Below, piece by piece: positions 13,831 through 57,565 of a DNA stretch of 64,000 nucleotides. A program made the translations under genes and the position numbers. The DNA comes from a virus. Within the stretch, counting starts at the first letter, position 1, and the number at the start of each line of letters is the position of its first letter. Under the pieces are notes generated by a model. The model saw only the letters and a program-made list of their open reading frames with translations, did not search any database and had not been told where the DNA came from. The stretch spans positions 137,433 through 201,432 of the IMG/VR virus record IMGVR_UViG_3300049436_000052, one strand, 5' to 3'.

Positions 13831-14523
13831 ATGACTGAGAAAATAGATTTAAAAAAAATAGCTCAAGAAATTGACAAAAGAAAAAATGATGGAAGTGTTA
13901 CTCCATTATCAGAATCAACACAAATAAATGAAGCACTTTTAGGCAATAAATCAAATTTCTTAAAAAATCTTTATACATCAATTAAATATGGTGGAACCTC
14001 TGAATCAACAGAAAAAATTAAAGTATATAATAATATAATTAATGGTAAACCAATACATAATGTTTCTGAAGTACCACAACAACCAAAAAATGTTCAAAGA
14101 ATAGAAGAAAGAAAAACTATTCAAAATTATGAACCAGAATATCCTATTAATGATTTTGATAGAGAAGAACAAATGTATAGGGATATTGAAAAAAAGAAAA
14201 AATTAACATTTGGTGAATCGTTAGATCAGTTATCAGGAAAGGCTATTAATACAAATCAACCTCAAAATAATTATCAACAAATCAACCAATATAGTAAACC
14301 TGCGTTAAATGAAGAATTGATTGTTGGTAATGTAAAAAAACTTGTTGATAATTACCTTAATGAAAACTATAGCGCAATAATTGAAGAATCAATAAAAAAT
14401 GCAATTGTTGATATTTATGTTAGTGAAAAAATATTAAGTGTCTTGAATGAAAATGAAGATTTCTTAGAAAAGAAATTTAAAAGTTTTATTCAAAAAATGA
14501 GATCAAGCAATAAAAAAACGTAA
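13831..14523 (+). CDS. Hypothetical protein
   Basis: 230 aa; several INE/LNE motifs. Confidence 0.7.
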   Translation: MTEKIDLKKIAQEIDKRKNDGSVTPLSESTQINEALLGNKSNFLKNLYTSIKYGGTSESTEKIKVYNNIINGKPIHNVSEVPQQPKNVQRIEERKTIQNYEPEYPINDFDREEQMYRDIEKKKKLTFGESLDQLSGKAINTNQPQNNYQQINQYSKPALNEELIVGNVKKLVDNYLNENYSAIIEESIKNAIVDIYVSEKILSVLNENEDFLEKKFKSFIQKMRSSNKKT

Positions 14524-14543: not shown

Positions 14544-14553
14544 GTATTTATAA
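14544..14553 (+). promoter_or_regulatory. GTATTTATAA putative late promoter
   Basis: Exact motif 18 nt upstream of ATG 14572. Confidence 0.7.
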
Positions 14554-14571: not shown

Positions 14572-17500
14572 ATGACTTATGATGAATTTTTAAACAACTT
14601 CTTAAATAAATTTGAAGAAATAAGATCTTTTGCAGGTAAAATAAAATTTGCAAATGAATATTTAAGTAGAATTGGCAGTGGTTCTGGTAGAGTTGTTTAT
14701 GATATTGATGGTGAAAAAGTATTAAAAATAGCTAAAAATGCCAAGGGTATTGCCCAAAATGGTGAAGAAGCAAATATTGGTAATTATGATGATACAAGAC
14801 ACATAGTTGCAAAAGTTTTTAAATCTCCCGATGATGACTCATATTTAATTTCTGAAAAAGGAAAAAAAGTTAACGAAAGAAGAATCAAAGAATTGACTAA
14901 AATTCCAAGTTTACATGATTTACATTCGTTTTTAATGAATTATACATCACAAAATAACGGTGGAAGAAAAATCTTTGATCAAGATAAGGAAGTTGAACAA
15001 TTTTTATGGGATAATGAATTTGCTTATGATTTAGCTCAATTTATTTCTAATTATAGTCAATCTGCGGGCGACATGGGCAGACCAAGTACATATGGCGAAG
15101 TTCTTCGTGATGGACAACCAGCAATAGTTTTGACTGATTATGGTTTGTCTGATGAAGTATATAATAGTCACTATAGTCCACAAAGAAAACAAAAATATTC
15201 AATTTATGAAATAGATGATCTTGAAGAAATGTTAATACCGATTAATGAAAATTTAATGAATTTTATATTAAAAAGAGACAAATATCCATCTAAAACAATA
15301 AATAATATTGGCGAATTGTCTGATAAATTCCATGAATGTGTTGATAATGTTAAAGAATATTTAAATGTTGTTGAAAATAAAAAACAGTTTTATAATAATT
15401 TACTAGCATTACAAGAATATTTAATTTCTGAAAATTATTATAGTAGGGATAGGTTGAATGAAGAAAATGAAATAGATATTCAACAAATACCAAAAGTTCA
15501 AAAATGGTCAGCATTGGATAAAAACCGTGCAATTGAATTAGCAATAGAACTAACAGAAAGATTAAAATTATCACAACCAAAATTCTTAGGTGGTGGATCA
15601 TTGGGTTTTGCGTTTGAAATTAATCCTAATTTAGTTTTGAAAATTACAACAGATCCTAGTGAAGCTGATTCTGCATTGAAAATAATGAAATCAAATCCTA
15701 AACATTTAGCTAAAACATCTAATGTTTATAAAATATATGATAGTCAAAAGGATTTGTCGTATTTTGCGTTATTACAAGAAAATGTCCCAAATAAACCAGT
15801 TGATAATTTTAGAAGATTTAATAAAATATTTAATATAATATCTCCAAACGATATTTCATATAATGATTTTGTCGATTTAATAAGAAGTAGACAACCAAAT
15901 TTTGAACAATTAAATCAAATTGTTAATTTAATTTTAACTTATAATCAAACGGTTAATGTTTCAGAAAATACAAGAAAAGAAGTCCATGATTTTTTTCTTC
16001 AATTAGTTGAAATAAGAAAAGAATTAGTAAATTTGGGTGTTAAATCGGTTGATTTTATAAACCCAGAAAATTTAGGTTATAAAGACAATGTTTTAAAATA
16101 TTTTGATATTGGTGGATACAGAGCAGAAGAACCAACATTACCTGATGATTCGTTAGTGGTCGTAGAAGAAGAATATTTAAAAGAAGAATTTGATAAAGAA
16201 TATTTTAGTCAAATTGCCAATAAAATTGCTGAAATAAAAAAATATCCTCAATTAGAGTCATTAGGTTCAGGAGATAATGGAAGTGCATATGATATTGGTA
16301 ATAATAAAATATTAAAAATAACTTCTGATAAAAGTGAGGCTGCTGAAAATTTAAAACTTAAAGGAAAAAAACTTAACTATATTGCAGAACCATATGAAAT
16401 ATATTCAATAAAATCTAAAGTAAATCAAAATTCTCCAGAAGTTTATGTTATTGTTTTGGAAAAATTAAGAACAGATCGCAATTATTTTCACAAACAATAT
16501 GAAAGATTAAAATATGTATTTTCATTATTAGGAATTGATTTCTTTGATGTTGTTGATTACTATTATTATAAAAATCAAGGGTTTTATGACAACAATGAAA
16601 AAATTCAGAAAAAAATAATGCCATATTTTGAAAAAAATCCTAAAGATTGGAAATTTTTCGAATCTTTATTAAAAATATCAGAAGAAGTTGAAAGAAATAA
16701 TATTGATTCAATGGATTTCCTAAATCCAGATAATTTAGGATTTAAACCCAATGGAGATATTGCATTTTTTGATGTTGGATTTGGTGATGCAAATATGATT
16801 AGCAAACCTGAAGAACTAACTATAGATGAAAATAAAAGGGTTCTTTCATCCATGAAAGGAAGTTCAACTGTTGAGGTTAAGAAAAAATGTAGATTAGGTG
16901 GTTTAGGAAATACAAGTGCACAATGCAATAAAGGTGATATAAAAAATTTAAATATAAAACCATTAAATGAAACAATAGTTCCTAATAGAACTTTTTGGGG
17001 TTGGGTTTCACCAGAACTTGAATTTTATGAAGTTCCAAAATTAAATCACAAGGATTTTATTATGAGACAATATAAAAAATATGATTTTGGTTGGGATTAT
17101 GATAGAGTATTTGATCAAGCAATGAAAGATGGATGGGTTAGAGTTGTTTACGAAAACGAACCAAATTTACGAAGATTTTATAGTGAATTATTTCTATATG
17201 GAAATGATGAAGAACATGTAATTTATGTATTAAAAACATTATTTTATGATTTGGTAAAATACGGAAACAATAAAATTTTCGTTGATTGGGAAAATAATAA
17301 AAGTAGTAAAGTATTTACCACAGATAATTCAGAAAATAAAGCAGATTTTTTTGACTACCTATTTGAAAACATAACTAACGAAGGCGTTGCAGACAAATAC
17401 GCTGAAAAGGAATTTAATATAGAACCAAAATTTACTAAGTTTGAAAAACAATATAAAAAACAACAAAATATTGAAAATGAAGAAGAGGTTGTTGGACAAA

Positions 17501-18234
17501 TTAATTCGATTGGTGGTAAATCTTATAATTTAAAAAATAGTGATTGTAACATACCACTTTTGATCACACCCGAAATAAAAGATTATCTATTAAAATTTGA
17601 TTCAGATGAAAAATTATTGAGAAGTGGTGGTTTACCTACTGAATTATTAGATAATGCAGCATTTGGTTTTAATGACAAAACATTAACACAGTTATTACCT
17701 AAACAATTATCTATTAAATGGAAGGATGATTATGAAAATGTATTATATGAGGTTCAAAAAAGTGGTTTATCAAAATTAAATTGGGCAAAAAAAATAGATC
17801 TGTCTCAACCTATAGATGTGAGTTTTGATGGTAAGAAATTTTATATTGAAGATGGTCATCACAGATATTTTGCAGCCAAAGTATTGAACAAACCGTTAAA
17901 GATAAATCTCGAAATAAAAGCAAACCCAGTAATTAAATTGGGTGGTGATTTAGGATATGATAATTATCATAGATGTATATGGAAACAAGCACATGAAAAA
18001 AATAATGAACTTGATATCATGAATGAAGAAAAACCTCAAAAAATATCTCTTATTTGGCTTAACAAACTATGGAATTTCTTATCACCTAAACATAGAAATA
18101 ATCAATTATATAAAAAATGGTACGAAAAATCTTTAAACGGTACGATTACCGACAAAGAATGGCAACATTTTAATTATCTTCTAAAAAATGGTGATTCAAT
18201 GTACAATAAAAGCAATTTAACAAAAAAGAATTAA
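14572..18234 (+). CDS. Multidomain protein: three protein-kinase-like domains plus a ParB/Srx-like domain
   Basis: G-loop/VxK/DxG sets: GSGSGR..VLKIAK..TDYG; GGGSLG..VLKITT..ENLG..FDIG; GSGDNG..ILKITS..DNLG..FDVG; C-terminal PIDV..FYIEDGHHRYFAA. Confidence 0.8.
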   Translation: MTYDEFLNNFLNKFEEIRSFAGKIKFANEYLSRIGSGSGRVVYDIDGEKVLKIAKNAKGIAQNGEEANIGNYDDTRHIVAKVFKSPDDDSYLISEKGKKVNERRIKELTKIPSLHDLHSFLMNYTSQNNGGRKIFDQDKEVEQFLWDNEFAYDLAQFISNYSQSAGDMGRPSTYGEVLRDGQPAIVLTDYGLSDEVYNSHYSPQRKQKYSIYEIDDLEEMLIPINENLMNFILKRDKYPSKTINNIGELSDKFHECVDNVKEYLNVVENKKQFYNNLLALQEYLISENYYSRDRLNEENEIDIQQIPKVQKWSALDKNRAIELAIELTERLKLSQPKFLGGGSLGFAFEINPNLVLKITTDPSEADSALKIMKSNPKHLAKTSNVYKIYDSQKDLSYFALLQENVPNKPVDNFRRFNKIFNIISPNDISYNDFVDLIRSRQPNFEQLNQIVNLILTYNQTVNVSENTRKEVHDFFLQLVEIRKELVNLGVKSVDFINPENLGYKDNVLKYFDIGGYRAEEPTLPDDSLVVVEEEYLKEEFDKEYFSQIANKIAEIKKYPQLESLGSGDNGSAYDIGNNKILKITSDKSEAAENLKLKGKKLNYIAEPYEIYSIKSKVNQNSPEVYVIVLEKLRTDRNYFHKQYERLKYVFSLLGIDFFDVVDYYYYKNQGFYDNNEKIQKKIMPYFEKNPKDWKFFESLLKISEEVERNNIDSMDFLNPDNLGFKPNGDIAFFDVGFGDANMISKPEELTIDENKRVLSSMKGSSTVEVKKKCRLGGLGNTSAQCNKGDIKNLNIKPLNETIVPNRTFWGWVSPELEFYEVPKLNHKDFIMRQYKKYDFGWDYDRVFDQAMKDGWVRVVYENEPNLRRFYSELFLYGNDEEHVIYVLKTLFYDLVKYGNNKIFVDWENNKSSKVFTTDNSENKADFFDYLFENITNEGVADKYAEKEFNIEPKFTKFEKQYKKQQNIENEEEVVGQINSIGGKSYNLKNSDCNIPLLITPEIKDYLLKFDSDEKLLRSGGLPTELLDNAAFGFNDKTLTQLLPKQLSIKWKDDYENVLYEVQKSGLSKLNWAKKIDLSQPIDVSFDGKKFYIEDGHHRYFAAKVLNKPLKINLEIKANPVIKLGGDLGYDNYHRCIWKQAHEKNNELDIMNEEKPQKISLIWLNKLWNFLSPKHRNNQLYKKWYEKSLNGTITDKEWQHFNYLLKNGDSMYNKSNLTKKN

Positions 18235-23924: not shown

Positions 23925-24102
23925 TTTTGAAGAAACTTTATTTAGATTATTATTTTTTAATTTTAAAATTTCATATAATAAATGTATTGAAGATGATCTA
24001 GAATTAGAAATAGAAAGCGAATTTAAAAAAATAAAGTTTTATCTAACATTATTTGGTGAGTTGACAGAATTAGAAAAAGAATTGTTTAAATTAAATGAAT
24101 AA
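23917..24102 (+). CDS. Small hypothetical protein
   Basis: 61 aa, collinear. Confidence 0.55.
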   Translation: MNNFEETLFRLLFFNFKISYNKCIEDDLELEIESEFKKIKFYLTLFGELTELEKELFKLNE

Positions 24103-24111
24103 ATTTTTCAT

Positions 24112-24330
24112 GTGATGAATACTAAATTAACTTTACTGGAAAGACGTGAAATTGCCAGAAAGACAATACCTACAATGAGAAGAGATAGACGTAAAAATTT
24201 TAGAGGTTGGGTGTTGTTAATTTTTATGACACATAAAGAAGAAACTTATGATTATTTTGGAATTCCGAAATTTGAAAATGAAGTTGATGAATTTTATAAA
24301 ACACACCCTATAATTAGAAGGTTTTTATGA
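24112..24330 (+). CDS. Small hypothetical protein
   Basis: 72 aa; ATGA overlap with next gene. Confidence 0.6.
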   Translation: MMNTKLTLLERREIARKTIPTMRRDRRKNFRGWVLLIFMTHKEETYDYFGIPKFENEVDEFYKTHPIIRRFL

Positions 24331-24569
24331 AGAAAACCAAAGCATATTTTATTCAGCATTGTGATCATCCTAATTGTGATTTAGGTTCTTTCGCATATAC
24401 TTGTCCTTATTGTGATAAAGTAATTGATGATTATAAAATTTGGTGGAAAGAAGATGAAATTTATAAAGGAAATTCCCATAATTTCAATTGTAAAAATTGT
24501 GAAAAGGAATTGGTTGTTAAATGGAATAAAAAGAAATATACTTTCGAAGTAAGTTTAATTAAAAAATAA
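24327..24569 (+). CDS. Small zinc-ribbon protein
   Basis: CDHPNC, CPYC, CKNC. Confidence 0.7.
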   Translation: MKKTKAYFIQHCDHPNCDLGSFAYTCPYCDKVIDDYKIWWKEDEIYKGNSHNFNCKNCEKELVVKWNKKKYTFEVSLIKK

Positions 24570-24575
24570 ATTATC

Positions 24576-24806
24576 ATGATAAAGTTAAGAATAACACATA
24601 TTTGTGATGTTTGCGGAAAAGAAGTAACCAGACAAATTAAATTTAAAGGTTATGAAAATTTTGAAAGTTCGATTGGTGATTATGATGAAGCATATGTGCC
24701 TGAAACTTGGGGAGTTGGTTATAAAAAGAAAAAAATAATTTTGATGTGTAAAAAATGCCTAAAAAAATATCATCCAATAGATGTTGATGTTCCTGCAATT
24801 GCTTAA
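24576..24806 (+). CDS. Small zinc-ribbon protein
   Basis: CDVC ... CKKC. Confidence 0.7.
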   Translation: MIKLRITHICDVCGKEVTRQIKFKGYENFESSIGDYDEAYVPETWGVGYKKKKIILMCKKCLKKYHPIDVDVPAIA

Positions 24807-24817
24807 ATATTTTTTAT

Positions 24818-24925
24818 ATGAAAATAAACGATTTAAATCGTTGTGTTTGTTCTAAATGTGGCGATAAGCATACTTGTCATGATAAAGTTTCAGTTGAATT
24901 TTTTAAATTAAAAGATTTGAAATAA
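24818..24925 (+). CDS. 35-aa Cys/His micro-protein (not in track)
   Basis: My translation: MKINDLNRCVCSKCGDKHTCHDKVSVEFFKLKDLK*; TAATG coupling with 24925. Confidence 0.55.
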   Translation: MKINDLNRCVCSKCGDKHTCHDKVSVEFFKLKDLK

Positions 24926-25122
24926 TGAACGATATTGAACTTAAAAAGTATATAATTAGTTTTGAGCATATTTTCATGAGTTCATTAGAATTATTTTTTC
25001 GTGAAAATTATTTAGAATATATAGATACTAATTTAATTTCTGAATGTAATAAAGAAGATATTTTTAATGATAATGAAAGATTAAAAGAATTAGATTTTAT
25101 TGTTGATGTTGGTATGAAATAA
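24925..25122 (+). CDS. Small hypothetical protein
   Basis: 65 aa, followed by a terminator. Confidence 0.6.
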   Translation: MNDIELKKYIISFEHIFMSSLELFFRENYLEYIDTNLISECNKEDIFNDNERLKELDFIVDVGMK

Positions 25123-25149
25123 TTAATCCTAATAATATCTTTTTTTCAG

Positions 25150-25184
25150 AAAATCCTAATCATATAACGTGGTTAGGATTTTTT
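25150..25184 (+). terminator. Intrinsic terminator
   Basis: AAAATCCTAATCA...TGGTTAGGATTTT followed by a T tract. Confidence 0.8.
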
Positions 25185-25193
25185 GTTTTTTAA

Positions 25194-25203
25194 GTATTTA
25201 TAA
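25194..25203 (+). promoter_or_regulatory. GTATTTATAA putative late promoter heading the baseplate operon
   Basis: Exact motif 14 nt upstream of ATG 25218. Confidence 0.75.
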
Positions 25204-25217
25204 AAAATTAGAATTTA

Positions 25218-25616
25218 ATGAGATCATATAATATCAATTTCCCACTTAATGATGATGTTAACACCAATACATTCTTTTTGACTACAAAGACAACAAAGGA
25301 TGCATATACATCAAATTTATTATTGTTGTTATTAACACAAAAAGGTGAAAGATATTATATGCCTGATTATGGAACTGATTTACTTAAATTTATTTTTGAA
25401 CCGAACGATGATCAGACAGCAGTTGAAATTGAAGATGAAATTAAAAGAACAGTATCGCTTTATATTCCAAGTCTTCGAATTAATTCAATAATATATAGTC
25501 GGGATGTTGATGAAGATGGTAATGAAATTTCGGATAATCAATTAAGTGTAACCGTTAATTTTACATTCGTTGAAGATAGTTTTAATGAAAACGGTAGTTT
25601 AACAATTAATTTTTAA
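25218..25616 (+). CDS. Baseplate wedge protein, T4 gp25/GPW-like
   Basis: LLLLLTQKGERYYMPDYGTDLLKFIFEP..EIKRTVSLYIPSLRI is the gp25 family signature. Confidence 0.9.
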   Translation: MRSYNINFPLNDDVNTNTFFLTTKTTKDAYTSNLLLLLLTQKGERYYMPDYGTDLLKFIFEPNDDQTAVEIEDEIKRTVSLYIPSLRINSIIYSRDVDEDGNEISDNQLSVTVNFTFVEDSFNENGSLTINF

Positions 25617-25656
25617 AACATGAAAAAATAATAAAAGAAATATTTGAATTATATAA

Positions 25657-27495
25657 ATGGCAGACAATAATATAAAATACTCATCCAGAACATTTTCGGA
25701 GATAAAATTTGACCTTATAAATTATATAAAATCCGCATATCCTTCTGTTTTACAAGACTTTAGCGATAGTAGTGTGGGGTCAATTTTATTGGATATAAAC
25801 TCTTCTGTAGCTAACAATCTATCAATTAATACAGATAAGATCTTTTTAGAGACACAACTTGAAAATTCGACCCAAAGAAATTCATTATTAAATATTGCAA
25901 AGAACATGGGGCTGAATCTCCCTGCCAAACGTCCTAGTGTTACTATTTGCGATATATTGGTAACTGTTCCTGTAAAGGGAAATCAACCAGATTCTACTTA
26001 TTACCCAATACTTGAGGCGGGGGCACAAATCATTGGAGGATCTAAAATTTTCGAAACGCAGAATAATATAGATTGGAATAGTTCGGTAAGTGATTTAGGA
26101 GATCCAAATAGGTCAATAATTCCTAATTTGGATTCGAATGGTGTTATTGTTAGTTATAATGTAACCAAGAGAGAGGTTGTGATAAATGGCACTTCAAATA
26201 TTTATAAAAGGATTATAACAGATGCAGATATTTTTCCGTTTTTCACAGTAACGTTACCAGATTCAGATGTTATTGAGATTGAAAGCGTGATATTGTTGGA
26301 AGGGACAAATTTTTCGACAAATCCATCTTTAAGTGATTTTAATAATAATGATTATAAATATTTTGAGGTTGATTATTTGGCACAGCAAAGAGTTTTTGTT
26401 GAAGATACAGAAAATTCAAGTTCAATCACAAATACAAATAATATTAAAGCTGCTAGATGGATTGATGTTACAAGGAAATTTATTAAAGAATTTACATCAA
26501 ATGGATATTGTGTGTTGACATTTGGTTCGGGTGATGCTGAAACGAATGCATTTAAAGAAGGATTTTTAAAGGAAGGTGTGAGTAATAGGGCATTTCTTGA
26601 TAATTTTTTAAACAATACTGCTTTGGGTGAAAAACTAAAACCAAATTATACATTGTTTATCAGATATAGAACTGGTGGTGGAAGTAATTCGAATGTTGGA
26701 GCAAATATTTTAACAAGTTTTGGAAATTATAATTTGAGGGTTAATGGTTCAAGATCTGATTATAATCAAAATGTTCAAAGAAGTATTAAAGCAACAAATC
26801 CAATTCCTGCAATTGGTGGAAATGATGGCTTAACAATTGATCAGATTAGAAATTTAATTAAATATAATTTTTCCAGTCAAAACAGAGATGTAACATTGAC
26901 AGATTATTTGTTACAATTATATAAAATGCCTGGAAAATTTGGATCACCATTTCGTGCAAATGCTTTTAAGCAAAATAATAAAATTGTTTTATCAATACTT
27001 GGAAGAGGTTCTGATGGAAAACTATCAAATACAAGCAATACCCTATTAAAAGAAAATATTGCTGAATATTTAACACAATATAGAATGGTAAATGATTATA
27101 TTGAAATAAAAGATGGAAAAATATATAATTTAGCTTTTGATGTTGATGTTTATGTTGACAATATTTTAAATAATCAAATTGCCGCAAATATTATTGCAAC
27201 TGTTAGAGACTATCTTGATATTAATAAATATGAAATGAATCAAGATATTTTTATTAGTTTATTACAAAAAGAAATTTCGAAAGTTAATGGGGTTATTAAT
27301 GTTATTTCAATAAAAGTTTATAATAAAGTTGGTGGATTATATTCGACAAATGTTATTTCTCAAGAAATTTTAGATACTGTAACTGGTGAAATAAAAATTA
27401 TTAACAATACGATTTATTCTGATGAAGAATCATTATTTGAAATAAAAGTACCTGAAAAGGATATACGTGTTTATTTGCGTAAATCAACAACATAA
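25657..27495 (+). CDS. Baseplate wedge protein, T4 gp6/baseplate-J-like
   Basis: RTFSEIK..YPSVLQDFSDSSVG..., YRTGGG..NVGA, NPIPAIGG.D..TIDQIR, VTLTDY. Confidence 0.85.
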   Translation: MADNNIKYSSRTFSEIKFDLINYIKSAYPSVLQDFSDSSVGSILLDINSSVANNLSINTDKIFLETQLENSTQRNSLLNIAKNMGLNLPAKRPSVTICDILVTVPVKGNQPDSTYYPILEAGAQIIGGSKIFETQNNIDWNSSVSDLGDPNRSIIPNLDSNGVIVSYNVTKREVVINGTSNIYKRIITDADIFPFFTVTLPDSDVIEIESVILLEGTNFSTNPSLSDFNNNDYKYFEVDYLAQQRVFVEDTENSSSITNTNNIKAARWIDVTRKFIKEFTSNGYCVLTFGSGDAETNAFKEGFLKEGVSNRAFLDNFLNNTALGEKLKPNYTLFIRYRTGGGSNSNVGANILTSFGNYNLRVNGSRSDYNQNVQRSIKATNPIPAIGGNDGLTIDQIRNLIKYNFSSQNRDVTLTDYLLQLYKMPGKFGSPFRANAFKQNNKIVLSILGRGSDGKLSNTSNTLLKENIAEYLTQYRMVNDYIEIKDGKIYNLAFDVDVYVDNILNNQIAANIIATVRDYLDINKYEMNQDIFISLLQKEISKVNGVINVISIKVYNKVGGLYSTNVISQEILDTVTGEIKIINNTIYSDEESLFEIKVPEKDIRVYLRKSTT

Positions 27496-27507
27496 TGAAT
27501 TATTTTA

Positions 27508-28155
27508 ATGGAATTGATTAAAAAAACAATATTGCTTGCAACTACTACAGGTACTACAACTGGATGCACACATTGTTATGTAATTATACCAGATTTAACA
27601 GCTTTATATCATTTTAAAATTCAGTTATCACAAAATTTATTGGATTGCGCTTTTTTTGATGCTTATGAATATGATGGTGATTTAACTGGAACTACAATAA
27701 ATAATGTTACATATACAATAACGGGTGAATGTCAAAGTAGGTTAAGTGAATTAAAAAAATTTAGTCAAAGTAGTTATTTTGCAAATCAATATCTTGGAAA
27801 CGGATCATTTATTAATGATGGTGTTGATTATTTAAATTCGATTCAAAATATGAAAGTAGTTTATTATATTGGTGGTATAAGATATATTGATAATATTAAT
27901 GGTGATACAACAAAAACAACTTTTTATTTTACTAGAACAGGTTTTTCTGATTTGGATTTTATTAATAAACCAATTATAAAAAATAGTAATAAGGATAGAA
28001 TTATTAGTAATCCTAAAATAAACAATGATGTATTTATAGCAAGACAAGAACTATCAGCATTTCTTGACAATTCTAAATTAGAATATTTTGATAAATTAGT
28101 TGATTTAGAAACATATGCAGGTGGTAAATATTTTTACATGATTGATAATTCATAA
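27508..28155 (+). CDS. Putative baseplate/tail structural protein
   Basis: In the baseplate operon; TGTT motifs. Confidence 0.6.
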   Translation: MELIKKTILLATTTGTTTGCTHCYVIIPDLTALYHFKIQLSQNLLDCAFFDAYEYDGDLTGTTINNVTYTITGECQSRLSELKKFSQSSYFANQYLGNGSFINDGVDYLNSIQNMKVVYYIGGIRYIDNINGDTTKTTFYFTRTGFSDLDFINKPIIKNSNKDRIISNPKINNDVFIARQELSAFLDNSKLEYFDKLVDLETYAGGKYFYMIDNS

Positions 28156-28170
28156 CAAAAAAATAAAGAA

Positions 28171-29088
28171 ATGAGTATAGGGGTATTAGGGACAATAAAA
28201 CCAAGCGATGTAAATATTAATGACATTGATATTTATTATAATTATACACCAAATAGAGAAACAAACAATAATGATATTTTAAAAATAGATGATCCAAATT
28301 CATTATTGTCATACTGTTATTTGCCAGAAACAGATGGTAATTTTATTGCTGGAAATGAAAACATTTTAGATGGTTTATATAACTTAACACTTCCTGCAAC
28401 AATATTTAATCAATTAGGAATTTATACAATTTATATAAAACCTAAAACAATAACCACAACAATAATTGATTGTAGTGTATTGTCTTCACTTCCAACAGTA
28501 AAAGGAATAGTATTGGATTCAAATTTATTACCAGAAAATTTAAGAACAAATAATGCATTACAAGGTTATAGGGTTGAATATATTGATACAAGTGGAAATA
28601 AACTAAGAAATGTTGTAAGATATGTAGTAACCTCAAACAAAGTTGTTCCAATTTCTGAAAACATTGGAAATACTTCTCAAAAATCTATTAGATATAGATT
28701 TGATGATAGTGGAACATTAATATTTCTACAAGTAAGTCCTAGTTCTTCATCTGATGTTAAAGCAAATGTCTATCCATTCATTGGAATAGCAGGACAAACA
28801 ATTTTAATTTCAAATACATTTTTTTCTCCATTAACATTAGAAATTGAAATGGTTGAAAATACACTTGATAGTTTAAGTGGATTCATAACTGGAAATCAAG
28901 CATTTGATTTAACAAATGGTATTAAAACTCATTATGACCCTAACAATAACAATGCAATCACATATCAATATAATGTTTTTGAAATTAAAGATGATGTTGG
29001 AAATGTACCATTATATAATGTTGTTGAAAAAAGAACCAATATCGATAGTTCACAAGATTTTGATCAAATTGTTAGCGATATTTTATAG
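28171..29088 (+). CDS. Putative structural protein
   Basis: 305 aa, beta-rich, in the baseplate operon. Confidence 0.6.
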   Translation: MSIGVLGTIKPSDVNINDIDIYYNYTPNRETNNNDILKIDDPNSLLSYCYLPETDGNFIAGNENILDGLYNLTLPATIFNQLGIYTIYIKPKTITTTIIDCSVLSSLPTVKGIVLDSNLLPENLRTNNALQGYRVEYIDTSGNKLRNVVRYVVTSNKVVPISENIGNTSQKSIRYRFDDSGTLIFLQVSPSSSSDVKANVYPFIGIAGQTILISNTFFSPLTLEIEMVENTLDSLSGFITGNQAFDLTNGIKTHYDPNNNNAITYQYNVFEIKDDVGNVPLYNVVEKRTNIDSSQDFDQIVSDIL

Positions 29089-35646: not shown

Positions 35647-37857
35647 ATGGCATTTATTGGTAAAAAAAACCCAACAGTTCTAAATATAAAACTAACTTCA
35701 AAAGGTAGAGAATTACTATCTGAAGGTAAGTTAACATTCAATTATTTTGCATTAGGTGATAGTGAAATTGATTATAATTTTAATTCTTTAGCACAATTAA
35801 ATCCATTTTATAATCAAATATTAAAACCAGTAGATGAGAATCCAAATATTATATCATTTATTCCAAAAACAATTTCAGGAGATCCATATAATTTTATATC
35901 AAACGTTTCATCAGTTCCAACAATTGTTCAAAATAATGCAAATAGTATTGGGTTTTTTAATATTACTGGCAATAGTGTTAGTTTTTTAACAGATGGGGAT
36001 CATGTAAAACAACCAGATGTCATGATTAAAGTAGATAATCTTACAGGTGGTACTTTATTGGAATTATTTAAAGCTCCGACATATTTAGCCAATGTTAACG
36101 AACCTAGTGTTGGTGATTTTATGTTGGTTAAGTGGTCAAATAAATACGACATAACAAGCGGAACAACTGGTTATAATATTGATTTATCAAATCCAAAACC
36201 AATTTTGGTATATAAAATACAATCAATAATATCTGGATCGTTATTCAACGATAATTTAATTGTTGAAGTTGACAGAGAATTGCCTAATTTTAGTGGTATT
36301 ACTGGAACAACAAATGTAAATGTAGGTGCAATAATATTTTATAATTATATTAATTTTACTGGAGATACAATATATAACGATTATTCAACCAATTATGAAA
36401 ATGAGAGTGTATTGGCATTTTTACAAAACTGCCAATGTCCTACGATAACGTTTCCATTTTGGAATTTATCTATTGTATATATTGATGAAATTATTGGAGT
36501 TCAAACAGACAATAAGAAATTTCAAAAATTTTCATCTAATTTATATGGTGGTTTTGTATCATACATACAAAATCAAAAACCCGTTTTTAACAAATTAGGA
36601 ATAATTCATTATTCTAATTTTTCTCCTTCCAATACATATGGTGAAGAACTTTATGTTAATACTGTTGATAATAATGTACCTATATTAGACATACCAACAA
36701 TAATGTGGCATAAATCATCAACAAATTTGATGGGTGTTAAATTAAAAGCAATTAACACACTAAAAACATTAACTGGTGAAACCAAATCACTAAACATTTC
36801 ATATTATGATTTGGGTGATTTAGACGGAAATGTTGTTGGAAAAGTATTTCCAAGTTTAAAAGTATTTGTTATTGAAGATCAAGAATTACTTTTTGCATTG
36901 TCTTACAAATCAAATAGATCTTGGACTTTACCAAATTATAGTGTGGGAACAAATGATAATATTGTAATTGGATGTCCAACATGTTCAATAGACTTTGATG
37001 TTACAGTAACAAATCCGACTAGTCTTATTAGTGGAAATGGATCTTTATATATTGATAATATTGTTAATCAAATTACTGGAAGTAAGTTAATTTTAGATGT
37101 TAGTGGTTTAACTAGTGGTCAAATTTATTTTGATCAAATAGTAGCAAATGCATTAATTGGCAATTTAAGCGCTGATACATATAGTGTGACAATACATGAT
37201 TTGGGTGCATTAAATTGTCAAGGAAAAACAATTGTAATGTCTAATCCAACAAGTATATTATCTATTTATAATACTGGAACAACTCAAAGTGGTTTAGATC
37301 CTGATTTTGAATTATCTATTATTAATCCTACTACTATTAGAGTTTATTTAAATGACATTGGAACTATTTATGGAACTGGTTATACTCAAATAGTTTCATA
37401 TGGAGCTACTGCACCAATATCTTATTTAACAATTGGAACATATCATGAATTCAATAATCTAACATTCTTAAATCCATATACTATATATGTTAAAGATAAA
37501 TATACTGGATCGACGGAATTTATAATAACTAAAGACTATGTTGCTGCTGGAAATCCTTTAAATAGTAATTTTATTGTTTCAAATCAGATGGTAGATAGTG
37601 GTGGTACATATGTCATACTAACTAATTATTTAACAACGATAAATCCAAGTGTAAATCCAATTATTGGAACAATTGAATTTAGTGCATATGAATCAACATC
37701 AGTTCCCTCAAGTTGGGAAGTGTTGCCAATTGGAGATCCTAATGGAACTTCGAAAAAAATATATATAACTGGAACTAGAAATTATACTGTTTCAGTAAGA
37801 GAGAGATATCAAACAATTGAAATGTATAAGTTTACAAAAACAACAATAATAGTGTAA
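35647..37857 (+). CDS. Putative baseplate/tail protein
   Basis: N-terminal LTSKGRELL..G.LTFNYFALGDSEIDY is a typical phage baseplate/collar N-terminus; C-terminal Ig-like segments. Confidence 0.6.
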   Translation: MAFIGKKNPTVLNIKLTSKGRELLSEGKLTFNYFALGDSEIDYNFNSLAQLNPFYNQILKPVDENPNIISFIPKTISGDPYNFISNVSSVPTIVQNNANSIGFFNITGNSVSFLTDGDHVKQPDVMIKVDNLTGGTLLELFKAPTYLANVNEPSVGDFMLVKWSNKYDITSGTTGYNIDLSNPKPILVYKIQSIISGSLFNDNLIVEVDRELPNFSGITGTTNVNVGAIIFYNYINFTGDTIYNDYSTNYENESVLAFLQNCQCPTITFPFWNLSIVYIDEIIGVQTDNKKFQKFSSNLYGGFVSYIQNQKPVFNKLGIIHYSNFSPSNTYGEELYVNTVDNNVPILDIPTIMWHKSSTNLMGVKLKAINTLKTLTGETKSLNISYYDLGDLDGNVVGKVFPSLKVFVIEDQELLFALSYKSNRSWTLPNYSVGTNDNIVIGCPTCSIDFDVTVTNPTSLISGNGSLYIDNIVNQITGSKLILDVSGLTSGQIYFDQIVANALIGNLSADTYSVTIHDLGALNCQGKTIVMSNPTSILSIYNTGTTQSGLDPDFELSIINPTTIRVYLNDIGTIYGTGYTQIVSYGATAPISYLTIGTYHEFNNLTFLNPYTIYVKDKYTGSTEFIITKDYVAAGNPLNSNFIVSNQMVDSGGTYVILTNYLTTINPSVNPIIGTIEFSAYESTSVPSSWEVLPIGDPNGTSKKIYITGTRNYTVSVRERYQTIEMYKFTKTTIIV

Positions 37858-37859
37858 AT

Positions 37860-38786
37860 ATGGCAGATATTAGATTTAAAATAAGTGGTAATACAAATCC
37901 TTTTATAGCAAAATTGTGGAATAGTGGATGTACTGCACTATTACAACAAAAATCAATTGACTATTCTGGAACGTGTGTTATATTTGGAGGATTAGACGCT
38001 AATACATACTATAATGTTTCCATAAACGATAAAATAGATACAATATATTCCAAACAATTTTTAACACCAGCACCAATAACACCTTCAATATTACCAACAA
38101 AATATGTTTGTTTAATAGGTACTCTATATAATTCAAGCGATTATGTTCAACAAATATCAAGTCCAAAGGAATTGTTTATATCACCAATATTATCAACTGG
38201 TGAATGTGTTGATGTTAAATTAAGGATTAATACAACAAATTATTCTAATACCCAAAACAGTATAACTCTATATTGTGGGGGTGTTGCACTATCACCAGTA
38301 TATTCAAATTCAGGACAACAATATAAAACAATAAATATTAAACCAAATGATAGTATTTGTTATACAATGACAACATATGCCACATCATCTCCAGGCGTTC
38401 AATTCTCTGGTACATCCAATATTGAGATTATTGGAACAACAGGACATAATATCACATCTTTAATCTCTTCAACATATTATTCCAAATCAACGTGTTTGTC
38501 GATATCAAATACTGGATCAATATCAGCAAATCAAACAATATTTGTATTATCACCAAGTAGTATTTCTTATAGTTTACCAATAATAATAACTTCAACACAA
38601 ATGTGGGAAATTGATGTAACAACAGTTCCTTCATGGATTAATTATGCATTTGTTGATGGAAATAGTGGAGATAGTCCAGATTTATTTGTTCAAGCAAATG
38701 ATACACCTAATCTAAGAAATGCGATGGTTAAAATTTGGTTAAAAAATAATCACAATATATTTGTTGTAATTAATATCACAATTTAA
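37860..38786 (+). CDS. Putative virion protein: fibronectin-like N-terminus, Pro/Thr linker, module shared with 33771, BACON-like C-terminus
   Basis: FGGLDANTYYNVSI; TPAPITP; WEIDVTTVPSWINY..GNSG..VQANDT..RNAMVKI (BACON-like). Confidence 0.55.
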   Translation: MADIRFKISGNTNPFIAKLWNSGCTALLQQKSIDYSGTCVIFGGLDANTYYNVSINDKIDTIYSKQFLTPAPITPSILPTKYVCLIGTLYNSSDYVQQISSPKELFISPILSTGECVDVKLRINTTNYSNTQNSITLYCGGVALSPVYSNSGQQYKTINIKPNDSICYTMTTYATSSPGVQFSGTSNIEIIGTTGHNITSLISSTYYSKSTCLSISNTGSISANQTIFVLSPSSISYSLPIIITSTQMWEIDVTTVPSWINYAFVDGNSGDSPDLFVQANDTPNLRNAMVKIWLKNNHNIFVVINITI

Positions 38787-54508: not shown

Positions 54509-57500
54509 ATGAACGAAGAAACAAAATTTAAGCCAACACTAAATAAACCAGTGAACGATCAATCAAAGAAATTTGAAAAAAATTCTAATTCAATTATGAT
54601 CCAAAATGGTATTAAATTGAATGAAGAAAATAAAGGAAAACTTTTAAAAAGACATAAATTATTTGATTTAGATAAAATGGAAGTTTTAGTTTCATCAGAA
54701 CCAATACTAAAAGCATTATATAGTAAATTAGAACAAAGAGGTAAACCATATTTTGGATTTCACATGAATGAAAATATTATGAGTTATATTTTCAATAGTC
54801 AAATAATCACTGATTCTAATAATTTTCAAAAATATAAAAATACTCAAATTCCAGAAAAAGCAAAAAAAGTCGATAAAAGTGGAATTAAACAAATTGAAAA
54901 AAGAGGAAAAGAAAAAATGAAAAAATTTAAAAGAGATTTGAAAAGCAAAGAAAATGAAATAGAAGAAAACCAAGAAGGTAGGGAAGAAAATATGCCACAA
55001 CCAACAAATCCAAATATTGAACATGAAATTCCATCAATCGATGATGAAACTGATATTATTATTGATGATTTGATTGATAAGTTTATGGTCTTTGGTGGTT
55101 CTGAATTTATTGGTGAATTTCCAGATATGAAAAGTGCATTAGAAAATGCTAAAAATTGGAAAGCAAAACATAGTACATATCCAAAAACTTGGTTAGTGAC
55201 TTCAAATGGAAGTTACAATCAACTTGATGATGATGGTAATGTTATTAATGAAACTACAACTGCTGCTAGTGCTGGAGGTGCTGCTGGATATGTAGGTTAT
55301 GCAGGCCCTGCTGCTTGGGGTAGTGGCGATTTGATGAAAACAAAAGGAAAGAGTAAAGTAATGCGTAAACCTATTTGGAATATGGGAACTATTGTCAATG
55401 AAGATTATTTAATTAATTCTGAGAATTTTGAAAGATTATTTAAATTTTTAGATGAACAAAACGATATTGATTATATTCAAACAAATAGTGATGCATATGG
55501 AGATTTGAAAAATATGAATGGCGATAATATCAATATTATAAAAAACGATATTAAGAATAAAAAAATGGATAATCCAAACTTAGAAACCGTTAAAGAAGAA
55601 AAGAATTTAAATGAAAAAGCAGTTTCAAAAAAACAACAAAAATTTATGGGAATGGTTCATGCACTTCAAACAGGACAAATAAAACCAAGTGAAGTAAGTG
55701 ATAGTATAAAAAAAGCAGCAAAAACCATGAAGAAAAAAGATGTTAAAGATTTCGCTTCAACCAAACATGAAGATCTTCCAGAAAGAGTTGATGAAAATAT
55801 TGTACTTCCATTAGAAAATCTTTATAAAAATGAAATTAATCAAGGTAAAACTGATAAAGAGGCTGCAATGATATTGTTAAATAGATTAACCAAGGGCAAA
55901 TATACTTCTTGGGATGAGAATAAAATAAATGAATTTGTTGAAAAAATTATAAAAGCAATGAAAAATACAAATATAAACGAAGGAAATTTAAATGGTGAAG
56001 AACCAACAAAAGTATTATTTTTGATTAACGAAAAAGATCCTAATGATCCAGATTTGTTTGCATATTTTCCAGAAGAAAATTATGACAGTAATGGAATTTT
56101 AAAAACTGGATATTCACATGTTGGTCAACACTCTGCTGTTCATCCTGATTATGCTGCCAAAAGTAGAGAAGCAACTCCTGAAGAATTTGCAGATCTTAAA
56201 GCAGAACTTGAAAGTATTGGATATAACTTAGAAGTTTTAAATCGAGAAGGTGTTAATGAAAATGAAGAAAATGATGAAAATTTACAACCAGATGAAAATG
56301 ATTGTTTTATTCAAGATAATACAAGAGGTGGTTATGATGTTTCATGTGATGGTAAATTTATTGGTAATTATGAAGAAATGGATATTGCATTAAACATAGT
56401 AAAACAATGGAAATTAAAAAGTAATTGGTATCCAAGTACTTGGTTTGTTTCAGATCATGGAAATGTTTCATTAATTGATGATGAAGGTAATATCATAAAA
56501 GAATCAAGTATATTAGAACCAATTGAAGGTACAATGGCAATGAGTCCAGATCCAATTGATCAAAGTACAATGCCTAGAGGAATGAATACAGATAGTGGTG
56601 GAATGAGTGAAGAGTTTGATTTTAATAAAATAAATGAAGAATTAGATAATTATAAACTTCATCACAACAGATTAAAAAAATTGAATGAAGATAGAAAACC
56701 TTCTTCACTGATATTAAAAGATCGTTTAGGTGTTGATAATCAAAAAAACTTTAAAAAGGATTTGTCTCATAGTGGAACTAAAGAAATTATAGATATCGAA
56801 AAAGAATTACAATACAAAGATCAGCAAACAGATATTAAAGATCCTCAAAAATTATCACAAGATATTGAAAAAACAGAACTAAAAGCAACAAAAGGAAATG
56901 CTTTAGAAAATGTTGGTGATTCTGCCAATGATAAAGGTAATGAAATTCCAAAAAGAAATTTGACAGATGAAGAAATGGATGAAGTTAATAAATATCGTTT
57001 AGGAATGCAAGATTTGGTTTATGATAATGAAACTGGTGAAAGATTTGAAGATCGTATGAAAAATGATATGGGTGATAGATTATATAAAGAAAGAGAAGAA
57101 AAAATGAAATTCAGAGCAGAAGCTCCAATGTATAATAAAGACACTCAACCAACTGAAAAAGGTAAAAAAGTATCTGTACAATATAATAAAGATAAATCAA
57201 TGTGGAATCAAAGAAGTGGTCTTCAAGAAACATTTATTAGTGGAAAATATTTTGACGAATTAGGTAAAAAAAGAATTATAGATTTTGAATTGAAAAACGT
57301 TACAATTTGTGAATCAAAAGAAAATTTATTTGAATTGGATTTAGTTGGGGTTGGAAACAATTTAGAATTAAACGAAAATTTAAATAAATTTATAAACGAA
57401 TTTCAATTTTATACAGATGGTGTTAAAGTATTTCATGGTAAGAAAACTGTTAAATTAATTGAGGAAAATAAAAGTGATGATTTTGATAAGATGAAACATT

Positions 57501-57565
57501 TATTGTCATATAATCCAAAAGATTTTGTTAATACTAAAAAAATTAAAGCAAATCGTGGATTTTAA
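54509..57565 (+). CDS. Mosaic polyprotein-like putative internal head protein, including a DUF3008-like domain and a duplicated module
   Basis: EKAVSKKQQKFMGMVHA..DVKDFASTKHEDLPE (DUF3008-like); two FIG..M..AL..K.WK.K..YP.TW.V..G..DD.GN.I.E modules; many [I/L/V]NE junctions. Confidence 0.7.
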   Translation: MNEETKFKPTLNKPVNDQSKKFEKNSNSIMIQNGIKLNEENKGKLLKRHKLFDLDKMEVLVSSEPILKALYSKLEQRGKPYFGFHMNENIMSYIFNSQIITDSNNFQKYKNTQIPEKAKKVDKSGIKQIEKRGKEKMKKFKRDLKSKENEIEENQEGREENMPQPTNPNIEHEIPSIDDETDIIIDDLIDKFMVFGGSEFIGEFPDMKSALENAKNWKAKHSTYPKTWLVTSNGSYNQLDDDGNVINETTTAASAGGAAGYVGYAGPAAWGSGDLMKTKGKSKVMRKPIWNMGTIVNEDYLINSENFERLFKFLDEQNDIDYIQTNSDAYGDLKNMNGDNINIIKNDIKNKKMDNPNLETVKEEKNLNEKAVSKKQQKFMGMVHALQTGQIKPSEVSDSIKKAAKTMKKKDVKDFASTKHEDLPERVDENIVLPLENLYKNEINQGKTDKEAAMILLNRLTKGKYTSWDENKINEFVEKIIKAMKNTNINEGNLNGEEPTKVLFLINEKDPNDPDLFAYFPEENYDSNGILKTGYSHVGQHSAVHPDYAAKSREATPEEFADLKAELESIGYNLEVLNREGVNENEENDENLQPDENDCFIQDNTRGGYDVSCDGKFIGNYEEMDIALNIVKQWKLKSNWYPSTWFVSDHGNVSLIDDEGNIIKESSILEPIEGTMAMSPDPIDQSTMPRGMNTDSGGMSEEFDFNKINEELDNYKLHHNRLKKLNEDRKPSSLILKDRLGVDNQKNFKKDLSHSGTKEIIDIEKELQYKDQQTDIKDPQKLSQDIEKTELKATKGNALENVGDSANDKGNEIPKRNLTDEEMDEVNKYRLGMQDLVYDNETGERFEDRMKNDMGDRLYKEREEKMKFRAEAPMYNKDTQPTEKGKKVSVQYNKDKSMWNQRSGLQETFISGKYFDELGKKRIIDFELKNVTICESKENLFELDLVGVGNNLELNENLNKFINEFQFYTDGVKVFHGKKTVKLIEENKSDDFDKMKHLLSYNPKDFVNTKKIKANRGF

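Follow-up and report, generated by a model that had tools for sequence, protein, structure and literature searches.

A core protein of huge phages joins three minimal kinase-like units to interchangeable cargo and may be loaded into the prohead

For polyvalent proteins, a class that includes kinases lacking the C-terminal lobe (C-lobe), entry into the host along with the DNA has been predicted (Iyer, Burroughs, Anand, de Souza, and Aravind 2017; PMC5512222). T4-type (S77) proteases cut after Glu and strip short targeting peptides from internal proteins (PMC5694885, PMC9026906), and the N-terminus MKTYQEFIAE of T4 IPII and IPIII is a targeting peptide (PMC9026906). We analyzed a stretch of 64,000 nucleotides (the window; positions 137,433 to 201,432 of IMG/VR virus record IMGVR_UViG_3300049436_000052) that encodes a protein with three kinase-like units, here called the tri-kinase protein. 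Its open reading frame (ORF) lies on the + strand at 14572..18234 and encodes 1,220 amino acids (aa) according to the ORF listing and translation, as an earlier reading made from the letters without database searches (the sequence-only reading) had claimed. The virus record that holds the window is 334,326 bp long and was judged complete; the window itself is AT-rich (∼25% G+C), and its + strand carries nearly all genes.

The first unit, K1, occupies 14572..15216 (+ strand, aa 1 to 215), starts with MTYDEF, and matches phrog_4301 (E 2e-16). Its core, at about aa 30 to 198, contains the Gly loop G35xG37xG39 (GSGSGR, aa 35 to 40), K52, E66, D167, and D189. The second unit, K23a (15523..16176, + strand, aa 318 to 535; core at about aa 337 to 515), contains K357, E364, D494, N500, and D512 and has a tail that ends in VVE/LKE, while the third, K23b (16213..16830, + strand, aa 548 to 753; core at about aa 563 to 738), contains K582, E589, D715, N721, and D734 and has a tail that ends in IDE (aa 751 to 753). 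Three tandem kinase-like units had been called in the sequence-only reading, and they are found within a few residues of where it placed them, with the catalytic residues in place. K23a and K23b share the motifs KITxDxSEA and DFxNPxNLG, as had been noticed, and are 28% identical (E 3e-16), which identifies them at the sequence level as true paralogues. Whole-protein self-BLAST found no repeats in the 1,220-aa protein; the paralogy is visible only between separate pieces. K1, with its DMGRPSTYG loop, had been described as a different type, and the alignments agree. Direct comparison of K1 with the K23 units finds only the Gly-loop/Lys region in common, and hhalign of K1 against K23a/K23b gives an E value of 2.5e-4 over 160 columns, in which the Gly loop, the Lys, the catalytic Asp, and DxG line up. 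By these alignments, K1 is a different and more distant kinase-like type than K23.

The predicted structure of aa 1 to 545 (AlphaFold2, 83 homologues) has a mean predicted local distance difference test (pLDDT) score of 91, with disordered loops at aa 209 to 223 and 535 to 545. When this model was compared with the PDB by Foldseek, the best 50 matches were all kinase-like and the top ones were the tandem kinases EGFR-KDD and TYK2 JH2-JH1; the list is filled by K23a matches, and K1 was searched only within the joint model. K23a matches the kinase N-terminal lobe (N-lobe) through the DFG motif, and its best structural matches are the Hanks-type kinases PKR, Stk1, and MPS1. The elements by which a protein-kinase-like fold is recognized, namely a five-stranded N-lobe sheet, the Gly-rich loop, the beta3 Lys, and the alphaC Glu, are present, and the model shows a kinase fold for K23a. 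The case for a kinase fold in K1 is indirect and comes from three sources: the K1 profile matches SteC kinase (E 5e-4, N-lobe) and PKC-iota (0.05) in the PDB with the catalytic loop and DFG aligned, the order of its secondary-structure elements in the model is that of a kinase core, and hhalign relates it to the K23 units. A single-sequence search of the PDB with the 1,220-aa protein gave no match. The structural alignments end at DFG (for example, they cover CDK2 residues 1 to 152), and the units therefore lack everything after it: the activation segment and the C-lobe helices alphaF to alphaI are missing, and each unit ends ∼20 residues after DxG (∼15 to 20 in the K23 units).

Standard family models do not find these units. 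At E ≤ 10, neither Pfam Pkinase (PF00069) nor Kinase-PolyVal (PF18762) matched anything in the genome, and none of 117 units from the family was matched by any Pfam kinase model (E ≤ 1 for Pkinase); the sole link to PF18762 is an Atlas feature neighbor at rank 52, to be taken as a lead only. Among 55 aligned K1 sequences, there is little or no variation in the Gly loop, the Lys, the alphaC Glu, the catalytic Asp, or the DxG Asp; among 62 K23 sequences, the same is true of the Gly loop, Lys, and alphaC Glu, and the catalytic Asp and Asn and the DxG Asp are invariant or at least 90% conserved. The near-invariance of the Lys, Glu, and Asp residues argues that the nucleotide sites of the units are functional. 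Each unit thus appears to be a minimal kinase-like domain that extends from the N-lobe to the DFG Asp and retains ATP-binding and catalytic residues, and the units represent, as far as sequence comparison can tell, new minimal kinase families of ∼200 aa that are invisible to Pfam.

The same residues bear on whether one or more of the units might be a pseudokinase that serves as a scaffold or an ATP-dependent switch, as in JAK JH2, RIO, and Bud32, with the module acting mainly as a carrier or chaperone for cargo. This would fit the unusual DMGRPSTYGE loop of K1, the absence of the activation segment and C-lobe from all units, and the constancy of the module, which is the carrier throughout the family. 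K1 also lacks the catalytic-loop Asn (D167 and D189 are present). However, Lys, Glu, and both Asp residues are near-invariant in all unit types across 55 to 62 diverse sequences, which argues for catalysis or at least nucleotide binding, and we consider a noncatalytic role very improbable.

Downstream of the kinase module, members of the family differ. More than 118 metagenomic homologues of 700 to 2,135 aa have aa 1 to 800 in common at 40 to 60% identity and then diverge. A relative is encoded at 263 IMG/VR loci; in these and in >190 clusters at 50% identity, the kinase module is followed by an element with two cysteines (the Cys element) and then by variable cargo. The number of K23 copies also varies, from one in some members to up to three in others. 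The architecture had been thought unusual for a phage; this can no longer be maintained, since the protein falls in a member-rich family of the described polyvalent class, C-lobe-less kinases included (PMC5512222). The head of a CCA-adding/poly(A)-polymerase enzyme (PF01743/PF12627) is the cargo in 71 of 119 homologues, many of the homologues also carry a 2H phosphoesterase (PF13563, PF02834, or PF08302), and GNAT, ART-PolyVal, ParB, and WGW domains are also found as cargo. In this phage, the CCA-adding enzyme, ART-PolyVal, and the GNAT-like protein are encoded by separate genes. To judge from these alignments, the family demonstrates cargo swapping: a constant kinase carrier and Cys element are followed by interchangeable cargo.

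The cargo invites a different view of the kinase-like units, whose substrates might be RNA ends, nucleotides, or small molecules and which would then belong to a tRNA/RNA repair kit. Such a role would account for the fusion of the module to a CCA-adding enzyme and to 2H phosphoesterases in most relatives, and it is in keeping with units that lack the C-lobe, the part that binds protein substrates. Against it, the best structural matches of K23a are Hanks-type protein kinases, and the ART, GNAT, ParB, and WGW cargo types are unrelated to RNA repair, so that a common route of delivery, and not a common pathway, may lie behind the fusions. We know of no RNA kinase of this fold. A role in RNA repair is improbable, if less so than the loss of catalysis considered above.

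The Cys element (16834..16971, + strand, aa 755 to 800) separates the kinase module from the cargo and reads ...TVxVKKKC(773)RLGGLGNTSxxC(785)N[QK]GDIxNL...[ILV]xE(800). It is the most conserved piece of the family, with a mean identity of 66%; its C, G, S, C, N, G, N, and E residues are invariant within the consensus ER.xS.M.GS.TV.VKKKC.LGG.GNTS.ACNQGDI.NL....[ILV]xE. Among 1.84 billion proteins, the element was found in 193 representative clusters, almost always downstream of the kinase module. It is modeled at a pLDDT of 58 to 69 as two short strands closing a loop with both cysteines. At identical residues, codon identity in the element is 0.566 versus 0.60 to 0.62 elsewhere, and Ser and Leu switch between codon families. 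Synonymous sites thus vary freely, and selection therefore acts on the peptide itself. Two other explanations of the element were rejected: a DNA-level recombination site or RNA structure, in view of these codon identities, and a genome-wide address tag, as it occurs in a single copy in the 334-kb genome. A literature search on CNQGD returned nothing relevant.

The conservation of the Cys element ends in a hydrophobic-x-Glu tripeptide, and the sequence-only reading had proposed that such xNE/xKE sites punctuate the whole protein. The seven tripeptides that it listed exist, and the family gives weight to the borders among them. At the end of the Cys element (LNE798 in this protein), the first position is I, L, V, or M in 68 of 68 sequences and the third is Glu in 68 of 68; past this [ILV]-x-E800, which lies in a region of pLDDT <70, conservation collapses and different, unrelated cargo domains start 1 to 5 residues further on. 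INE224 follows a disordered loop of pLDDT 36 and is conserved in 71 of 82 sequences. The tails of the first K23 copy have a conserved [LI]PE, and IDE751 is kept as [VI]-[DNST]-E in most complete tails of the second copy. LKE536 is kept in 3 of 82 sequences by column alignment, with a hydrophobic-x-Glu at that place in ∼20 ungapped copy-1 tails. TNE935 is a recurrent border in the family, and hydrophobic-N/D-E stands before every WGW and ParB module. By sequence comparison, conservation of hydrophobic-x-Glu at module borders is clear. Not all of the proposal held: just 5 of 82 sequences share LNE295, and the motif is not enriched in the protein taken alone.

A protease that could use such sites is encoded in the same genome. 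The head module is T4-like, with its genes in the order S77 protease, scaffold-like protein, and gp23 homologue. The S77 domain lies in a 595-aa protein (PF03420 at 32.9 bits, over the cutoff; phrog_207, E 1e-29), and the scaffold-like protein is acidic, 681 aa long, and has 6 [LIVM]NE sites versus 1.7 (P = 0.007). The gp23 homologue (E 2e-25) has the propeptide ...FENQLSYM-I-N-E|SSD opposite T4 ...FENQ...FLTE|AEIGG, with I-N-E at the position of the T4 gp23 cut, and M-[IL]-[NK]-E precedes [SAT] in 66 of its 66 relatives. A gene for a 751-aa HNH/homing endonuclease directly follows the capsid gene.

Leaders of the family and of its stand-alone cargo resemble T4 targeting peptides. The family N-terminus, MTY[DE]EFKQNFLPE, has MTY[DE]EF in 71 to 79 of 83 members and resembles T4 MKTYQEFIAE. 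LPE is found at positions 11 to 13 in 55 of 83 members; the tri-kinase protein analyzed here has LNK in that place, and its N-terminal helix is modeled as folded. A search of the other ORFs of the genome for an MTYxEF leader found none. The stand-alone ParB, WGW, ART, and GNAT genes have amphipathic N-terminal leaders of the type M.LK..I...I.EYLNE (M.LKKFI..TIREYLNE), a pattern that resembles the T4 IPII/IPIII targeting peptide and is found in 33% of stand-alone cargo proteins versus 5% of genome ORFs. In this genome, the ART-PolyVal gene (PF18760, E 1.6e-6; genome positions 109456 to 109893) and the GNAT-like gene (E 0.004; genome positions 97898 to 98392), both outside the window, were compared for their leaders: the N-termini, MELKSFILKTISEYLNE for ART-PolyVal and MKLKEIIKMTISEYLNE for the GNAT-like protein, are near-identical 17-residue leaders ending in YLNE.

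The tri-kinase gene also has an upstream motif in common with head genes. The promoter-like sequence GTATTTATA lies at 14544..14552 on the + strand, 28 nucleotides (nt) before the ATG. Its general form, [GC]TATTTAT[AG], has 86 copies in the genome, 41 of which are 8 to 60 nt upstream of an ORF start, and the ORFs behind it include the genes for the head protease, the scaffold-like protein, large virion-type proteins, baseplate/fiber proteins, and stand-alone ART. The control TATAAATA showed no such upstream placement (7 of 170). In related loci, GTATTTAT is found upstream of the tri-kinase gene in 40 of 40, with the full motif in 31. The sequence [GC]TATTTAT[AG] is probably a late-type promoter of the clade. 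Copies in the window are found at, for example, 11129, 12600, 13800, 14544, and 18655.

We regard capsid loading and processing of the tri-kinase protein as the most likely scenario, at a probability of roughly 45%. The protein would be made together with virion proteins and loaded into the prohead, where the S77 (gp21-like) protease would cleave behind Glu residues. The minimum would be one cut, at the invariant [ILV]-x-E800 with which the Cys element closes; INE226, the end of each K23 tail, and TNE937 might be further sites. The kinases and cargo enzymes would then enter the host with the injected DNA and act on its proteins or other targets at an early stage of infection, like T7 gp0.7 and T4 Alt/IP. 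The best-supported cut on sequence grounds, and a plausible one, is that after E800 between kinase module and cargo; the three kinases themselves may or may not be separated from one another. A wider version of this scenario is a modular cargo system, in which a tri-kinase carrier and a two-Cys junction receive plug-in modules that also stand alone with a leader like the T4 capsid-targeting sequence, every hydrophobic-N-E border is cut, and several kinases and effectors are injected. We put this version forward only tentatively and find it doubtful.

Several observations weigh against packaging and processing. In the tri-kinase protein alone, [LI]xE occurs 20 times versus 16.5 ± 3.6 in shuffled sequences and x[NK]E 22 times versus 20.4, so the motif is not enriched; the gene is not among the [LIVM]NE-rich ORFs of the genome, and hydrophobic-x-Glu is common in this Lys/Asn/Glu-rich proteome. 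Some conserved hydrophobic-x-Glu tripeptides lie inside folded domains (ISE93 and LQE401), and the K23a tail strand and the N-terminal helix are modeled as folded at high pLDDT; the conserved Glu there may therefore be structural. The gene is housed in the replication block (PolB and NUDIX) and not in the head module. The stand-alone proteins in the leader count are mutual relatives, so their counts are not independent, and the missing catalytic-loop Asn of K1 belongs here as well. No cultured relative turned up: the one match of a tblastn search against the phage collection was a K1-like hypothetical gene of Xanthomonas phage Xoo-sp13, 26% identical and in an uninformative context.

Much of this would be expected if the protein stayed intact and unpackaged, as a cytoplasmic multienzyme factor for host takeover or counter-defense. 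The hydrophobic-x-Glu tripeptides would then be structural domain ends, and the leaders on the stand-alone genes would be what is left of linkers after genes split and fused. The location in a conserved replication-gene block, the chance-level motif frequency, the conserved tripeptides inside domains, and the confidently folded K23a tail and N-terminal helix all favor such a protein, and there are unprocessed polyvalent precedents in N4 vRNAP and ArdC (PMC5512222). An intact protein accounts less well for an invariant [ILV]-x-E exactly where conservation ends and unrelated cargo starts, for near-identical 17-aa leaders on unrelated ART and GNAT genes, for a promoter-like motif common to head genes, and for a T4-like head protease with I-N-E in the capsid-protein propeptide. 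We judge the intact protein to be the main rival, somewhat less probable than prohead loading with cleavage at least after E800.

The remaining modules of the protein lie between K1 and K23a and beyond the Cys element. LNK, a helical linker domain (15241..15507, + strand, aa 224 to 312), starts at INE (aa 224 to 226), has helices of pLDDT 84 to 92, is kept in 118 homologues, and matches no known family. Most homologues have a segment of ∼35 residues between K1 and LNK (...ADGNDDILSD.G...DIR.GMWA.MPY.VGDG.GV before INE); it is gone here, where a short disordered loop is found at aa 216 to 223 (window ∼15217 to 15240). The cargo of this protein begins with the WGW domain (16978..17382, + strand, aa 803 to 937; FWGWVSP at 808), which has a confident predicted fold in a model of aa 751 to 950 and no match to a known family or solved fold. 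Directly after TNE (aa 935 to 937) comes a recurrent linker module, GVADKYAEKEF...F..FE..Y (17383..17472, + strand, aa 938 to 967). This module of ∼30 aa (EGVGDKYAEK.F.I.PEF..FE..Y) is found in 20 of 243 family proteins, always right after a hydrophobic-N/D-E border. A second recurrent module start, hydrophobic-NE followed by [TIV]GEGN..PY, occurs in ∼9 family proteins and is likewise always at a hydrophobic-N/D-E border.

A ParB-like EDGHHR, also pointed out in the sequence-only reading, is found at aa 1093 to 1098 in a ParB/Srx-like domain (17539..18006, + strand, aa 990 to 1145). This domain matches phrog_1033 (ParB-like) at an E value of 1e-4, and it has the conserved D/G-G-x-H-R nucleotide-binding motif of the ParB/Srx superfamily: in 66 sequences, D1094, G1095, H1097, and R1098 do not vary, and H1096 is at least 90% conserved. 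In an alignment with sulfiredoxin, DGHHR stands opposite GCHR. DUF1015 gives a subthreshold match (19.6 bits versus a cutoff of 25.8) that recurs in 63 of the 66 members, and other models match fewer of them (ParBc_2, 11; DUF6551, 6; DndB, 2). Pfam ParB_N did not match the domain at E ≤ 0.1, and a Pfam search with the whole 1,220-aa protein gave only a weak DUF1015 match. The ParB-like domain occurs as a stand-alone gene of ∼165 aa in many related phages, and WGW also occurs alone. The C-terminal tail (18022..18231, + strand, aa 1151 to 1220) follows MNE (aa 1150 to 1152) and is common to a few homologues (P0003, P0072, P0079, P0121, P0132, and P0142).

The tri-kinase gene is flanked by the PolB-NUDIX block and a glycosyltransferase gene, and this order is kept in 55 to 63 of 78 related IMG/VR loci. 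This synteny marks it as a core gene, variable at its 3′ end, of a clade of huge phages with T4-like heads. The gene directly upstream (window 13831 to 14523, + strand) encodes a 230-aa protein that has no assigned family, is syntenic with the tri-kinase gene in 63 of 78 loci, has 4 [LIVM]NE sites versus 0.6 expected (P = 0.003), and is preceded by the same motif, GTATTTATAA. The most [LIVM]NE-rich ORF in the genome (14 versus 2.5 expected; Poisson P = 4e-7) encodes 1,018 aa at window positions 54509 to 57565 (+ strand), without a promoter-like motif directly upstream. Elsewhere in the genome, positions 23950 to 28917 (− strand) encode a 1,655-aa protein with an endolysin-like C-terminal domain, divergent from the head protease gene and behind the same promoter-like motif; the virion may carry it as a lysin or as a protein for ejection. 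Positions 37766 to 38593 (− strand) match beta-glucosyl-HMC-alpha-glucosyltransferase (phrog_842, E 1.5e-42), and the phage DNA may contain T4-like glucosylated hydroxymethyl-cytosine.

If the tri-kinase protein is packaged and processed, hundreds of uncultured huge phages would deliver premade kinases together with RNA- and protein-modifying enzymes, and the targeting-and-cleavage logic of T4 would extend to polyproteins. Injected effectors in metagenomic phages could then be predicted by a sequence rule, from hydrophobic-N-E borders, leaders that end in LNE, and the Cys element, and the minimal kinase families of ∼200 aa would be candidates for enzymes of host takeover. A core protein of a prokaryotic virus with three apparently active kinase domains would be notable even if it were not packaged.

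In comparison with known systems, the polyvalent class itself is not new; the minimal kinase families, the fixed tri-kinase carrier, the two-Cys junction element, and the T4-like leader and border motifs are. Like polyvalent proteins, which carry two to fifteen unrelated conflict-type domains per chain, the tri-kinase protein has at least 7 modules, the cargo of its relatives is variable, and its homologues shuffle ART-PolyVal, GNAT, and ParB-type domains. It differs from them in that kinase module, Cys element, and cargo always follow one another in this order, in being encoded by a syntenic core gene of huge phages, and in having a CCA-adding enzyme as its commonest cargo. Kinase-PolyVal, also a domain of phage polyvalent proteins, has likewise lost the C-terminal kinase subdomain while its residues for ATP binding and phosphotransfer are kept, but the PF18762 and PF00069 models do not match the tri-kinase units, of which there are three, of two types, in one chain. 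T7 gp0.7, which phosphorylates host proteins for takeover, the bacterial effector kinase SteC, and the minimal kinases RIO and Bud32 are also small kinase-fold enzymes without much of the canonical C-lobe, and the similarity of gp0.7 to the N-lobe of the units is weak (hhalign E 0.006 for K23 and 0.65 for K1). None of these is known as a triple tandem or a carrier of swappable cargo.

T4 IPI, IPII, IPIII, and Alt, with their capsid-targeting sequence and processing by gp21, offer a parallel for packaging: the order of protease, scaffold, and gp23 and the S77 protease are found here too, diverse small effector genes here share only a short leader ending in hydrophobic-x-Glu, and MTYxEF is similar to MKTYQEF. 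In contrast to the T4 proteins, the modules here are concatenated in a 1,220-aa chain with internal candidate sites, the motif is typically hydrophobic-N-E, and the leader is longer (∼17 aa). In polymorphic toxins, pre-toxin motifs such as VENN (CdiA) and PxxxxDPxGL (Rhs) are short, very conserved peptides at which a constant N-terminal region gives way to a variable enzyme at the C terminus. The Cys element likewise borders a constant N-terminal part and variable cargo, but it has two Cys residues and CNQGD, belongs to a phage protein and not a secreted toxin, and is under selection as a peptide and not as DNA.

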